Assembly: GCA_016931455.1 (NCBI GenBank)
Contig: JAFGES010000064.1
Coordinates: forward strand, 13,664-77,663
DNA length: 64,000 bases
Direction: 5' to 3'
Origin: Desulfobacterales bacterium
GTDB taxonomy: Bacteria; Desulfobacterota; Desulfobacteria; Desulfobacterales; JAHDSC01
In this document: in pieces, positions 3,894 to 8,111 of the stretch
How the letters are laid out: each line of letters begins with the position of its first letter
Numbering within the stretch: position 1 is the first letter of the stretch
Position numbers and translations under genes: made by a program
Notes under the pieces: model-generated
Seen by the model: only the letters and a program-made list of their open reading frames with translations
The model's database searches: none
Told to the model about the DNA's origin: nothing

Positions 3894-6800
3894 CTATACA
3901 ATATTGATTTCCAACTGTTTACTGACCAGGGCACCGAAATTGTTATCCGTTCCCGACCACACCTTCGCCGCAGCGCGCAGTTCATACAGATAGAGTTTTC
4001 GTATTGTGGTTGCATGATCATCCCCTGCCGACGGCGGGGCAAATGTTTCGTCATGATCAAAATCCGGTTGATACGTGGCTTTGATTAACTCGGACGCACC
4101 TGTGCCGCCGGGTGCCAAACATTTAATCTTTACATAACCGTCACTGTCGGTGGCACGATACAGTTCATTGGCGGGCGGCGATGCAGGGGTTTCCAGTCCA
4201 TGCCGCTTGGCAGGACTTGGCCCCGGCGGGTCCAAACTATAATGCGAAGCGCTGCCCGAGAGTATTTCTATTTTTAAGTTATAAGCTTCCAACGGTTGTC
4301 CGCCGGCAGTGGTGACTTTAAATACCAATATTTTTTGCACGGTAACGGGTAAATCAAATTCTTCATCCAACGCATCACTTAAATCACCCGGCGCTATTTC
4401 TTCGTGAACGGTTAACACCGGCATTAACTGATTGTTGAGTTCAAATATACTTTGTGCAATTTGCGCATACTGTGGAACATTGTTATAAAATTGATCAATA
4501 AGCTGGGTCAAAAACACACGGCTGCCGCCATCGATAAACGGTGGATCATCTTGGAAACGTTCTAAAGTCTTCCATATGCTATTTGAAAAACGAGTGGCGA
4601 TATCGTTATTTACTGGGACGTTGTAGCCGTGCCAATAAGCCGGCGAATCAGCAAAAAGAACATCGGTATCGGATATGGCACGGTGTATCTGGTATAACGC
4701 ATTGGAAAAATAGCCTTCGTTGCGCAGACCTTTTTCCGGTTCATCAAAGTCAGGTGGTGGATTAGCAGCACCACCGAATAAGCGCTCATAGGGACGATCC
4801 TCTTCGCCGATATTCAGCAACGATTTACCCCAAAAACCATAACCGCGTACACGGTCGGTACTGCCGTAATGATTGCCCCAAAAATGCATCACATATTCCG
4901 CCCAGCCCTCACTGAGCGCCAAATCGTAAGAGTGTATTAAAGACCCCCAATGGGTGGCACTAATACGTATCCAGCGGAAAAAGTTAAGATCCTGCACAGG
5001 ATAGGGGCCCGTATTTTTAGCAAACAGCCAATGGGCCAGTTCATGGGCAACCACCGCATCGTCCCATCCATCGGCACCGCGGCCATGAGGCGAACCATCC
5101 TCGTCGCGGTCTAAATTGACATCGAGTGCATAGAAACTGCTGTTTTCTTCGATGTCGATATTCAAGCTATGCGCTGTATCTTCAGTACCCCAGCGCCTTT
5201 CTTCCGCTGCCGCCTGGGAATGTTTTTTAAACCACTTTTGGAACACGCGCGTCACTTTCAATACGTTTACAATGACACTGTCAAATTCTTCACTGCTTAA
5301 CAAGCCTTGATAATCCCATTGGTCTCTCGCCACATTTTCATCCGGATCGGTGGATAGCTCTTTGTCAAGATCAACTTCCAAGCCTAAACTTTGGCGCCAA
5401 TCCGCTTCACCCACAACACGAAAAGAAATATCGGGCAATTTTTCAAACACCCCCTGACCAATATCAAAAAAGTTAAGCTTAAGTTGTGTGTAGCTGCGTA
5501 TTAAGCGGACTTGGTGATGTTGTGTATCAGCAATCGCAAGCAGCCCTTGCTTATCAATTGCGGCACGGCTGGGTTTATTAAAACGTAACAAACGCGCCAG
5601 TTCCGGATAATAATCCGTGCCGCTGTCTGCATCTTGCCGGACGAAGTTATTCATATCCCAGTAAGCCAAAACATCACCGTCGGATTCTAAGCGAAATATC
5701 ATGTCTTGTTCACGATCGGTGACGATAAGTTTGTTTTCTTCATCCAGTGAAACACCACAGGGTTTGATAAATGACATTCCTCTAGGTCTAATTTCACGAA
5801 CAAAGCTGGGCGCAGTTGTCACTGGGCCATCCATGGTTAAGTTGAACTGCAACACCCGCGCGTTATCTGTATCTGCAATATATAGATGCCCATCGGCATC
5901 GACAGTAACATCTTCCGGATTATCCAAATTCCGTGTACCATCGGTTGTAATGCTACCGACATAGTCGCCGTTTAATTTATGATACTTAACGCGGTTGTTA
6001 TTCTTATCGGCAACGTAGAGTACCGGTTCTGCTTGTTTCGCAACACAAACACCCATAGGGCTATTAAAATCGTTATTACTACCGGCAGCCGTACCCGTAC
6101 CGATATCCGTGACATGTGTTAAGGATGCGTCGTATTGAAGAATCTTGTGGGCGTTGGAATCGGCAATAAAAACATCACCGGTTTCATATTTCACGATACC
6201 CACCGGCTTATGCAAGCCGGTTATGGAAGGCGTGGAATCGGGTTCCAATTCACCAGCCGCATTGCGGTTATAAATCAATACCCGGTTATTGCCTGTGTCG
6301 CTAATCCATAACTTCCCATCCACATCGAAATAGGTATAGCCCGGTTCAAACATATGGCCGGGTTCGGAAATCGGCGTCCAGGGATCACCGACACTGTCCG
6401 GCGCATCCCCATCGGCTTTCGCTGTCCCGGCGGGATCAAACATCGTGCCACGCACTACGCGTTGATCGGCACCGTCGGCGGCATACACTTCACTGCGCGG
6501 ATCAACAGCAACGCCAATGGGCGTCGGTGGGCCGCTCAAGCCCATGTTCCAATTCAGCAAATGATTGCCATTGTTATCCAGGCGTTGTATACGTTGGTTG
6601 TTAAAATCAGCGACGTAGATGGTATTGTTCATGGTATCTGCTGCAACGGCGACCGGCATGTCAAACTCACGATTGCTGCTGCCACTGCCACCCCCGCTTT
6701 TCTCCCAATCTGCTTGATGTGCATAGCTATTACCGGCGGCATTAAAATCCCAACGTGAAACGCGGTGCCATTCTTGATCACAAACATACAAGCATTTGTC

Positions 6801-8111
6801 ACGATCAGATGTTACATCTACTGGTTCCCAAAACGCAGCGGCGACAGGAGTACCGACAACTGTACCGGCCGGCGGTGCGCCAAACTCAGTCAAATGGACC
6901 AAATCAAAGTCAAAAGGAAACTCGACTCGATTGGCGTTATAGTCCGAATCATTACCCTTGACTTGGCGTCTGATAACAAAAACTTGTACACGGTGATTAC
7001 CGGCATCGGTTACCGCAAGCCATTCTTCACCGTCCACCTTACGTTCGTGTACGACAGTCAAACCTTGTGGAGAATCAAACTGCCCGCCGGCTGTGCCGGA
7101 AGCCCCGAAGTATCTATAAAACTTATAGCGTCCGTCGACTGACAGTGGGTGACCATCTTTCCAGTCCGGGCGGTAAATAACAATGCGGTCATTATCGGTG
7201 TCCGCAATAAACAAGTTACGATACTGATCTAAAGCAATACCCTTCGGATTCACCAAGCTAACACCTGATCCCGGTCCTGCGATGGTTTCTATATAAGTGC
7301 CATCTGGATAGAAACGCCGTACCTCGTTGCCATCGATCATAAACACAAAGCCATGGTGATCCACGGCAAGCGGTCCTGTTTGATTAAAACTGCCTCCTCC
7401 AAGCCGCGCAAGGGGGGCATACGGGACATCAATGTGTGCTTTGGGTTCAGTCGGCGCATTATCTAACGCACAAGGAACCGTCGGCCACACATCATAATAC
7501 GGGTATTGATCGTCTTCACCCACAGCGATGTTTTTGCTTTCACCGGGTTTGGGATTGGGGTTATAGCCAAACCCCTCTAGTGTATCGTCCGGATCCAACC
7601 AATCGAAGATAAATGCGTCATAGTCGGCCAAATAGACTTGCACGGTATCCTCAGGAACGGCAATGGGATTACGTTTTTTAGACGCACTAAAATCCGGGTA
7701 GGCAAACTTCAAGTGTGCGTGCAAACCCACAAAAATTTCCAAGGGTGCATTGGGATCGGTATAATCCGCGATGCGCGGGATACGCCGATTGTGATAATGC
7801 CGTGTGACCCATTCATCAGGCAGTGTTATTTGCTCATCGGCAGGCCCGGCAGCGGGCACGGTACGGTTGGCCTCCGGAATGGTTATTGTGAAAAACGGAT
7901 TCAGGCTGTTCTCTTCATCTTCATCAAAGGTAATTTCTACCTCCGCCACACCATTGTTGTTGGTGGTTGGTGTGCCGCTGGATAAATCAGGATCGTATAA
8001 AAATCGACTGTCTTCGCATAACAATTCTGCGCCGGGTACCGCGATCATATTACCTTGCGCCGGGTTATACGTGAGCACCTTGACGTAAATGGTTTCTGTT
8101 CTATATGCCAT
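3894..8111 (-). CDS. 1405-aa protein with about 12 NHL repeats (two six-bladed propellers), an MA-clan (gluzincin, Peptidase_MA_2-like) metallopeptidase-like domain and a C-terminal Ig-like region. Candidate CIS cargo or fibre.
   Basis: Repeated blades of the type PxGVAVD..xxLYVADxxNxRVxxF. HELAH is encoded at 5031-5045 with a downstream EGWAEY at 4893-4910. The start ATG overlaps the upstream stop (TAATG at 8111). Confidence 0.8.
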   Translation of the reverse strand: MAYRTETIYVKVLTYNPAQGNMIAVPGAELLCEDSRFLYDPDLSSGTPTTNNNGVAEVEITFDEDEENSLNPFFTITIPEANRTVPAAGPADEQITLPDEWVTRHYHNRRIPRIADYTDPNAPLEIFVGLHAHLKFAYPDFSASKKRNPIAVPEDTVQVYLADYDAFIFDWLDPDDTLEGFGYNPNPKPGESKNIAVGEDDQYPYYDVWPTVPCALDNAPTEPKAHIDVPYAPLARLGGGSFNQTGPLAVDHHGFVFMIDGNEVRRFYPDGTYIETIAGPGSGVSLVNPKGIALDQYRNLFIADTDNDRIVIYRPDWKDGHPLSVDGRYKFYRYFGASGTAGGQFDSPQGLTVVHERKVDGEEWLAVTDAGNHRVQVFVIRRQVKGNDSDYNANRVEFPFDFDLVHLTEFGAPPAGTVVGTPVAAAFWEPVDVTSDRDKCLYVCDQEWHRVSRWDFNAAGNSYAHQADWEKSGGGSGSSNREFDMPVAVAADTMNNTIYVADFNNQRIQRLDNNGNHLLNWNMGLSGPPTPIGVAVDPRSEVYAADGADQRVVRGTMFDPAGTAKADGDAPDSVGDPWTPISEPGHMFEPGYTYFDVDGKLWISDTGNNRVLIYNRNAAGELEPDSTPSITGLHKPVGIVKYETGDVFIADSNAHKILQYDASLTHVTDIGTGTAAGSNNDFNSPMGVCVAKQAEPVLYVADKNNNRVKYHKLNGDYVGSITTDGTRNLDNPEDVTVDADGHLYIADTDNARVLQFNLTMDGPVTTAPSFVREIRPRGMSFIKPCGVSLDEENKLIVTDREQDMIFRLESDGDVLAYWDMNNFVRQDADSGTDYYPELARLLRFNKPSRAAIDKQGLLAIADTQHHQVRLIRSYTQLKLNFFDIGQGVFEKLPDISFRVVGEADWRQSLGLEVDLDKELSTDPDENVARDQWDYQGLLSSEEFDSVIVNVLKVTRVFQKWFKKHSQAAAEERRWGTEDTAHSLNIDIEENSSFYALDVNLDRDEDGSPHGRGADGWDDAVVAHELAHWLFAKNTGPYPVQDLNFFRWIRISATHWGSLIHSYDLALSEGWAEYVMHFWGNHYGSTDRVRGYGFWGKSLLNIGEEDRPYERLFGGAANPPPDFDEPEKGLRNEGYFSNALYQIHRAISDTDVLFADSPAYWHGYNVPVNNDIATRFSNSIWKTLERFQDDPPFIDGGSRVFLTQLIDQFYNNVPQYAQIAQSIFELNNQLMPVLTVHEEIAPGDLSDALDEEFDLPVTVQKILVFKVTTAGGQPLEAYNLKIEILSGSASHYSLDPPGPSPAKRHGLETPASPPANELYRATDSDGYVKIKCLAPGGTGASELIKATYQPDFDHDETFAPPSAGDDHATTIRKLYLYELRAAAKVWSGTDNNFGALVSKQLEINIV

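Follow-up and report, generated by a model that had tools for sequence, protein, structure and literature searches.

An HExxH domain associated with toxins, DUF4157 or 'PVC-metallopeptidase', is among the core domains of extracellular contractile injection systems (eCIS; Zhang et al. 2012; Geller et al. 2021, PMC8213781). In operons of the Afp/PVC type, this domain is found at the 3' end, N-terminal to or beside polymorphic toxins. Contractile tails of the P2/Mu type and R-type tailocins share a gene order that runs sheath, tube, chaperone, tape measure and, further on, gpD, gpV, gpW, gpJ and gpI. Peptidase domains on phage tail-tip and tape-measure proteins are well known, among them the M23 domains in Tal proteins and tape measures, phi29 gp13 and the peptidase domains of lambda gpK. 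Here we analyzed a contractile tail cluster in 64,000 nt of DNA from a Desulfobacterales bacterium (assembly GCA_016931455.1, contig JAFGES010000064.1, positions 13,664-77,663 of the forward strand), a stretch that we refer to as the window. Our subject is gene X, an open reading frame (ORF) at 3894..8111 whose 1405-aa product is identical to JW786_06520, a hypothetical protein from a Desulfobacterales metagenome-assembled genome (MAG). We call its downstream neighbor gene Y and the protein found in place of X in sister clusters Z; all genes, domains and motifs placed below by window coordinates lie on the minus strand. Our analysis suggests that X may be a built-in enzyme of an injection machine rather than an interchangeable toxin or a receptor binder.

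Domain architecture and predicted active site of gene X

X opens with a strongly conserved domain that belongs to no detectable family (aa 1-245, 7377..8111) and continues with two NHL propellers of six blades each (aa 246-560, 6432..7376, and aa 561-870, 5502..6431). These are followed by a predicted thermolysin-like gluzincin domain (aa 889-1229, 4425..5447), an immunoglobulin (Ig)-like beta-sandwich (aa 1232-1347, 4071..4418) and a C-terminal tail made up of a helix and a strand (aa 1348-1405, 3897..4070). Within the gluzincin domain, the HExxH motif reads HELAH (aa 1023-1027, 5031..5045) and lies on the predicted active-site helix, and the distal glutamate is the first residue of EGWAEY (aa 1068-1073, 4893..4910).

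We assessed residue conservation in an alignment of 43 full-length X homologues (30-84% identity), the homologue set having been drawn from a collection of 5.8 billion proteins. H1023, E1024, H1027 and E1068 were invariant throughout the alignment, so the HExxH of X is not a chance motif. Q1141 was likewise invariant, and W1016, W1028, H1054, E1132, Y1134 and H1143 were each at least 90% conserved.

AlphaFold2 models were made for the last three domains together (aa 870-1405; predicted local distance difference test score, pLDDT, 83.6; predicted template modelling score, pTM, 0.86) and for the catalytic region alone (aa 889-1229; pLDDT 84.8). Both models put the HExxH on a long helix and E1068 on the long helix that follows, with a beta-rich subdomain before them and a helical subdomain after; in the shorter model, the two helices are residues 130-146 and 174-190. 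When that model was compared with the PDB using Foldseek, each of the 15 top matches was an M4 or M36 peptidase, over 298-331 aligned columns. These matches took in the M4 enzymes thermolysin (5fxn, E 4.3e-4), gentlyase, aureolysin, LasB, B. cereus neutral protease and ProA, together with three M36 fungalysins, at probabilities of 0.91-1.0 and E-values of 4.3e-4 to 0.07, the next-best match having an E-value of 1.6. A search with the three-domain model returned mostly Ig-like matches and was uninformative on the peptidase, and the viral structures in BFVD contained a single thermolysin-like match. Since the top Foldseek matches were all M4 or M36, the fold of aa 889-1229 is predicted to be thermolysin-like, and on the models the domain is a predicted zinc peptidase of the gluzincin type (clan MA(E)). 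E1068, being invariant and predicted to lie on the following helix, is the presumed third zinc ligand in what would be a three-ligand geometry. H1143 and Y1134 are candidates for the counterparts of His231 and Tyr157 of thermolysin.

The same residues bear on whether the domain is a catalytically dead scaffold with a purely structural role. Such a role might be read from the lack of a match to any Pfam peptidase family and from the atypical His-Glu spacing (41 residues as opposed to 20). However, the four metal-binding or catalytic residues are invariant at 30-84% identity, and the invariant polar residues of the catalytic C-terminal subdomain that speak against this reading are Q1141, H1143 and D1155. 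We consider a dead scaffold extremely improbable.

The NHL assignment was clear in Pfam (PF01436, E 4.9e-41, 137 bits against a cut-off of 20). An iterated hidden Markov model (HMM) of the blade recovered 11 blades, and one weaker blade at aa 246-268 was added by eye, which gives twelve blades spanning aa 246-870 in a 6+6 arrangement. Searched against PDB sequences, the X profile matched designed six-bladed Pizza6 NHL-type propellers and the TRIM71 NHL domain (E 1e-60 to 1e-47), and with the full-length profile these NHL matches crowded out everything else. The Ig-like module was matched by Foldseek to cohesin, PapD-like and Ig-like domains. Pfam found no match at E<=10 in the first 246 aa or in the last 529 aa of X, and the profile of the N-terminal domain had no match at E<=10 among PDB sequences. 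PHROGs gave no match to X and NCBIfam gave NHL-type matches only. No hydrophobic stretch of X fits a signal peptide or a transmembrane helix.

These results bear out what a sequence-only reading, made by a model without database searches, had described of the protein. It had noted the 1405-aa ORF (which we place on the minus strand), about 12 NHL blades, enough for two six-bladed propellers, a C-terminal Ig-like module and HELAH followed by SEGWAEY, the serine of which stands 44 residues after H1023. It had also named the conservation of the HExxH and the distal glutamate, and a structure prediction of this region, as checks on its peptidase assignment; the residues proved invariant, and the Foldseek matches of aa 889-1229 are to a peptidase fold. 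Of its placement in the MA clan, the gluzincin-like part stands on the invariant residues and the M4/M36 fold matches, and the likeness to Peptidase_MA_2 does not, there being no Pfam match to that family at E<=10.

More broadly, no Pfam peptidase model matched this region at E<=10, including Peptidase_M4, Peptidase_MA_2 (PF13485) and DUF4157, and the catalytic-domain profile had no match among PDB sequences at the same threshold. The spacing from H1027 to E1068 is 41 residues, compared with 20 in thermolysin. Because of the missing Pfam peptidase match and this longer spacing, we regard the domain as a divergent gluzincin that belongs to neither M4 nor Peptidase_MA_2. Three family memberships were thus considered and rejected: MEROPS M4 (Peptidase_M4/Peptidase_M4_C) for want of a sequence match and for the glutamate spacing, Peptidase_MA_2 for want of a Pfam match, and DUF4157/PVC-metallopeptidase for want of a Pfam match and because X is conserved and central in its operon.

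The domain is an unclassified and narrowly distributed gluzincin lineage. About 62 full-length X homologues were found in the 5.8-billion-protein set, most of about 1340-1480 aa and some of 1690-1910 aa, and a query with the peptidase domain alone returned only fragments there. In an exhaustive profile search over 1.84 billion cluster representatives, the domain was found at E<1e-10 in 34 representatives of 50%-identity clusters, all of which have the ~1400-aa X architecture or are fragments of it. Remote matches followed at E 5e-8 to 1e-3, none of them in any Pfam peptidase family. No X homologue was found in 50,697 phage genomes or in IMG/VR.

Two further observations concern this domain. 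His1054 (nt 4950-4952), at least 90% conserved, stands between the HExxH and E1068, inside the insertion that lengthens their spacing, and could be an additional or alternative metal ligand. The closest remote relative with a context that we examined, P0151 (E 3.4e-6; L038:10001-22451, GCA_039199225.1), sits in a stretch where three very large unannotated genes follow one another (1240, 1645 and 1254 aa) and no tail genes are in view. Thus, distant cousins of the X peptidase domain occur outside contractile injection system (CIS) loci.

Genomic position and conservation of gene X

Upstream of X lies the gene for the 1141-aa tape-measure protein (8111..11536; phrog_1272, E 1.6e-15), the stop codon of which overlaps the X start codon in the sequence TAATG (8109..8113). 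The start of X abuts or overlaps the tape-measure stop in the same way in four other loci (L003, L004, L039 and L040), and no terminator separates X from Y. The island as a whole begins with a conserved gene of ~360 aa, the sheath (14348..15430; Pfam and PHROG matches), a 164-aa probable tube (13840..14334; assigned by position and synteny, with weak PHROG matches only), a ~160-aa gene, a hypervariable ~390-aa gene and a ~200-aa gene. It then continues through the tape measure, X, Y (1..3793, cut by the window edge), a gpD-like hub, a gpV spike, PAAR, gp25 and Baseplate_J to a gpI-like protein with Reg_prop repeats and three last genes, one of them rich in coiled coil.

Gene order was compared in eight contig look-ups, which included the contig of a 30%-identity homologue and a Logan assembly contig with an identical gene X. 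In all eight, the succession tape measure, X, (Y), gpD-like, gpV, PAAR, gp25, gpJ and gpI-like was kept, even around the 30%-identity homologue. Host genes flank the island at both ends and resume three genes past the gpI-like gene; a search of the island for genes of a capsid, portal, terminase or AAA+ ATPase turned up none, and no lysis cassette was recognised. Because it holds tail genes only, without capsid, portal or terminase, the island is, as judged from its genes, a headless contractile tail cluster in P2/Mu order and not a canonical Afp/PVC-type eCIS. The translational coupling of X to the 1141-aa gene, now identified as the tape measure, and a sheath/tube operon setting had both been proposed in the sequence-only reading, and the sheath, probable tube, tape-measure and baseplate genes found around X agree with them.

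Between loci, X shows full-length similarity of 30-45% and so follows the tape measure (36-50%), gpD (35-55%) and gpJ (37-55%), the polymorphic genes of the island being Y and the hypervariable g5. Its architecture is constant in the ~62 homologues and the 34 50%-identity clusters. Within X, conservation, expressed for each part as the mean majority fraction, is highest in the C-terminal tail (0.70), followed by the N-terminal domain (0.64) and the propellers (0.58-0.60), and lowest in the Ig-like module (0.50). Conserved ends of this kind are what would be expected of docking surfaces. The profile as a whole is consistent with a vertically inherited component, probably associated with the particle, that has conserved docking surfaces and a conserved substrate or partner.

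We tentatively propose, at a little under an even chance, that X is a zinc metalloprotease component that acts at the distal tape-measure/hub/spike end and cleaves a protein or peptide of the cell envelope. According to this proposal, X would be a catalytically competent, thermolysin-like zinc metalloprotease fused to two six-bladed NHL propellers, and a lineage-specific, vertically conserved part of a headless contractile tailocin or CIS-like particle. It would be made in the cytoplasm without a signal peptide, with its translation coupled to that of the tape-measure protein, and would join or co-assemble with the distal tape-measure/hub/spike end through its conserved termini. The double propeller may then hold a conserved protein or peptide substrate or partner that the protease would cleave. 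We infer that X is carried in the particle and acts as the envelope is penetrated, the likeliest substrate being a proteinaceous or peptide component of that envelope. A tip- or hub-associated protease is our best guess for X, and its placement there draws on translational coupling, synteny and conservation.

The position and conservation of X also bear on whether it is an effector delivered on the spike or PAAR tip that degrades proteins in or on the target cell, like the VgrG-borne cargo of type VI secretion systems (T6SS). An intact and invariant protease active site would suit an effector, and so would the place of X, which precedes the gpD-like, gpV and PAAR genes by two to three genes; lacking a signal peptide, X would need the particle for its export, and eCIS toxins linked to an HExxH domain are known (PMC8213781). 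Nevertheless, X diverges along its whole length at the pace of a structural protein, is never swapped and always keeps its ~1400-aa architecture. It lies in the middle of the operon and not at its 3' end, with no small or immunity gene next to it, and the truly polymorphic gene is its neighbor Y. In addition, the tube bore measures about 4 nm, and two folded propellers would be too big for the tube lumen. A delivered effector is, in our view, unlikely.

Could X instead be a receptor-binding or depolymerase-like tailspike, with propellers that bind a surface ligand and a protease that clears a surface protein layer? Beta-propellers do occur in the receptor-binding domains of eCIS fibers (PMC12923769), and an Ig-like module next to a protease resembles the binding-plus-enzyme build of a tailspike. 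However, the fiber position is held by the three genes after the gpI-like gene, including the one rich in coiled coil, and X lies elsewhere, ahead of the hub genes. X has no hypervariable distal domain, its propellers being as conserved as the rest of the protein and its conservation even across domains (0.50-0.70), whereas hosts that include both monoderms and diderms should drive a receptor-binding protein to diversify. We judge a tailspike very unlikely. A CIS payload and a receptor-binding protein were the candidate roles put forward in the sequence-only reading; because X is mid-operon and uniformly conserved, in step with the tape measure, gpD and gpJ and away from the fiber position after gpI, and because the next gene is polymorphic, both roles are disfavored.

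Sister clusters and neighboring genes

A Baseplate_J profile scan of species-representative genomes yielded 33 loci, in Desulfobacterota, Chloroflexota, Cyanobacteria, Acidobacteriota, Gemmatimonadota, Actinomycetota, Nitrospirota, Planctomycetota and Proteobacteria. The tail island is present in at least six phyla, and its hosts are both monoderm and diderm. One carrier, Nodosilinea sp. AN01ver1 (locus L017), is culturable. In 12 of the 33 loci, either X or its C-terminal portion is encoded ahead of Baseplate_J. In nine others (L008, L011, L013, L023, L024, L028, L030, L032 and L036; at about 4.3-7.4 kb in each), the tape measure is directly followed by Z, a protein of 850-1350 aa, and X and Y are missing. 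The C-terminus of Z gives matches to Peptidase_M23 that stay below threshold, and the Z of one locus (Nitrospirales) includes an OmpA domain.

Y is a 1460-aa gene in full (L002:14319-18701) and ranges across loci from 710 to 1923 aa, being missing in one locus. Here it carries eight PG_binding_1-like repeats of ~100 aa (RxVQxRL) and a CarboxypepD_reg-like domain, and its orthologue in L014 matches PG_binding_1 at E 1.7e-13. Mostly only the first ~200 residues of Y are retained between loci and the polymorphic remainder is swapped, which makes Y a better candidate than X for an exchangeable cargo or binding module. Since Y has PG_binding_1 repeats and Z has M23 and OmpA signals, the slot between tape measure and hub appears to encode envelope-directed functions in this lineage. 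The role proposed here for X would then match one that the M23-type protein may fill in the sister clusters. An attachment domain common to X, Y and Z was also considered and was dropped after hhalign comparisons of the X domains with Y and Z found no relationship.

The sister clusters weigh on a further explanation, namely that X is an assembly or maturation protease that processes the tape-measure or hub protein and is possibly not in the finished particle. Lambda gpH, for example, is cleaved during tail assembly. A protease of this kind would be in keeping with the start-stop coupling of X to the tape-measure gene in every locus and with the way that X conservation tracks the tape-measure protein, and a conserved internal substrate would account for the equal conservation of propellers and protease in phyla whose envelopes differ greatly. 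Yet the sister clusters have homologous tape-measure and hub genes and lack X entirely, which makes an essential assembly role less likely, and X, with its 1405 aa and 12 propeller blades, would be a big protein if processing were its sole task. We therefore rate a maturation protease as quite unlikely.

Several points also weigh against our own proposal of a protease at the tip or hub that cleaves an envelope component. The TM-scores of the catalytic domain to thermolysin-family folds are modest (0.38-0.48, at E-values of 4.3e-4 to 0.07), and the cell-wall hydrolases of phage tails do not usually have a thermolysin-like fold. The N-terminal domain shows no detectable similarity to known hub, tube-initiator or adaptor proteins. 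Moreover, X is not essential to the machine, because about half of the related clusters are without it.

A broader reading, which we hold to be doubtful, is that X founds a new class of CIS component, a spike-proximal 'propeller-guided protease' serving either as a conserved delivered weapon or as a drill enzyme that cuts a proteinaceous surface layer (S-layer, sheath or outer-membrane protein) and so lets a headless tail fire through. X would then mark a widespread and uncharacterised CIS lineage, separate from Afp/PVC-type eCIS, from T6SS and from known tailocins, with members in Desulfobacterota, Chloroflexota, Cyanobacteria, Acidobacteriota, Gemmatimonadota and Actinomycetota.

Other features of the island and the window were recorded alongside X. 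The first island gene (376 aa, 15483..16613) is present in all loci and has no Pfam, PHROG or NCBIfam match; a gene of ~360-376 aa opens most of the islands examined, directly before the sheath, and a cap, a terminator or a second sheath-like protein are candidate roles for it. At 12211-13374, between the chaperone-like gene and the ~200-aa gene, lies a hypervariable 387-aa gene, about 6-21% of whose length was matched in other loci, its neighbors being 50-78% identical. In one cluster, from an Anaerolineaceae MAG (L027:3929-10001), the gpD-like gene appears to come directly after sheath, tube and two small genes, with no ORF for a tape measure, the ~200-aa gene, X, Y or Z seen on that strand. 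The G+C content is 44-50% in the island (window 1-16600) and 36-40% in some stretches of 20000-28000 and 56000-64000, a heterogeneity that might mean that either the island or the low-GC stretches were acquired horizontally.

Comparison with known systems

As in M4 thermolysin and M36 fungalysin, the HExxH of X is predicted to lie on an active-site helix and the glutamate on the following helix, and in the model a beta-rich N-terminal subdomain precedes a helical C-terminal one. X differs from these peptidases in having no match to them at the sequence level, a spacing of 41 rather than 20 residues and TM-scores of about 0.4. It also lacks a signal peptide and a propeptide, and its peptidase domain is part of a 1405-aa tail-cluster protein, not a free secreted enzyme.

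DUF4157 resembles the X domain in being an HExxH domain specifically tied to the operons of contractile injection systems. The two are nonetheless separate families: X has a thermolysin-like domain of 340 residues in a non-polymorphic protein encoded between tape measure and hub, and DUF4157 is much shorter. The cell-wall peptidases of phage tails are, like X, encoded beside tape-measure or tip genes, where the sister clusters have the M23-like Z. X is set apart from them by another catalytic fold, by belonging to no recognised peptidoglycan-hydrolase family and by its NHL propellers.

An HExxH domain in CIS operons is thus already known (DUF4157, PMC8213781), and the sequence-only reading, which knew of no fusion of propellers and metallopeptidase in a sheath/tube operon, was right about the fusion and too broad about the metallopeptidase: in the literature that we searched we found no account of NHL or propeller-protease proteins in CIS or tail-like clusters, whereas the unrelated DUF4157 has been described there. 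What is new is a predicted thermolysin-like gluzincin fused to two NHL propellers, its fixed place between tape measure and hub, and an uncharacterised, phylogenetically broad tail-only lineage that carries it. CIS are being engineered for protein delivery, although the way in which they get through diverse envelopes is poorly understood. Should X turn out to be carried in the particle, CIS machines would have a functional element not described before, and X would give access to an uncharacterised lineage of them that is spread over many environmental phyla. In addition, X, which is conserved, and Y, which is polymorphic, offer a clean pair of experimental candidates for telling built-in enzymes from exchangeable cargo or binding modules.

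The island shares with P2/Mu-type tails and R-type tailocins the common gene order together with sheath, tape measure, gpD-like, Phage_base_V, PAAR, gp25 and Baseplate_J proteins. It differs from them in the large genes X, Y or Z that are added between tape measure and gpD, in its many genes without a family match and in the spread of its clusters across many phyla. Of the Afp/PVC-type eCIS core (PMC8213781), the island has the sheath, PAAR, gp25, Baseplate_J and, as a weak or faint match, Phage_GPD. No Pfam match to the Phage_T4_gp19 tube, the DUF4255 terminator or the AAA+ ATPase was found in the genes of the window, of the homologue contigs or of the scanned downstream stretch. Finally, in contrast with Afp/PVC-type eCIS, in which the tape measure is encoded near the 3' end, the island has its tape measure between tube and hub, as in P2 and Mu.

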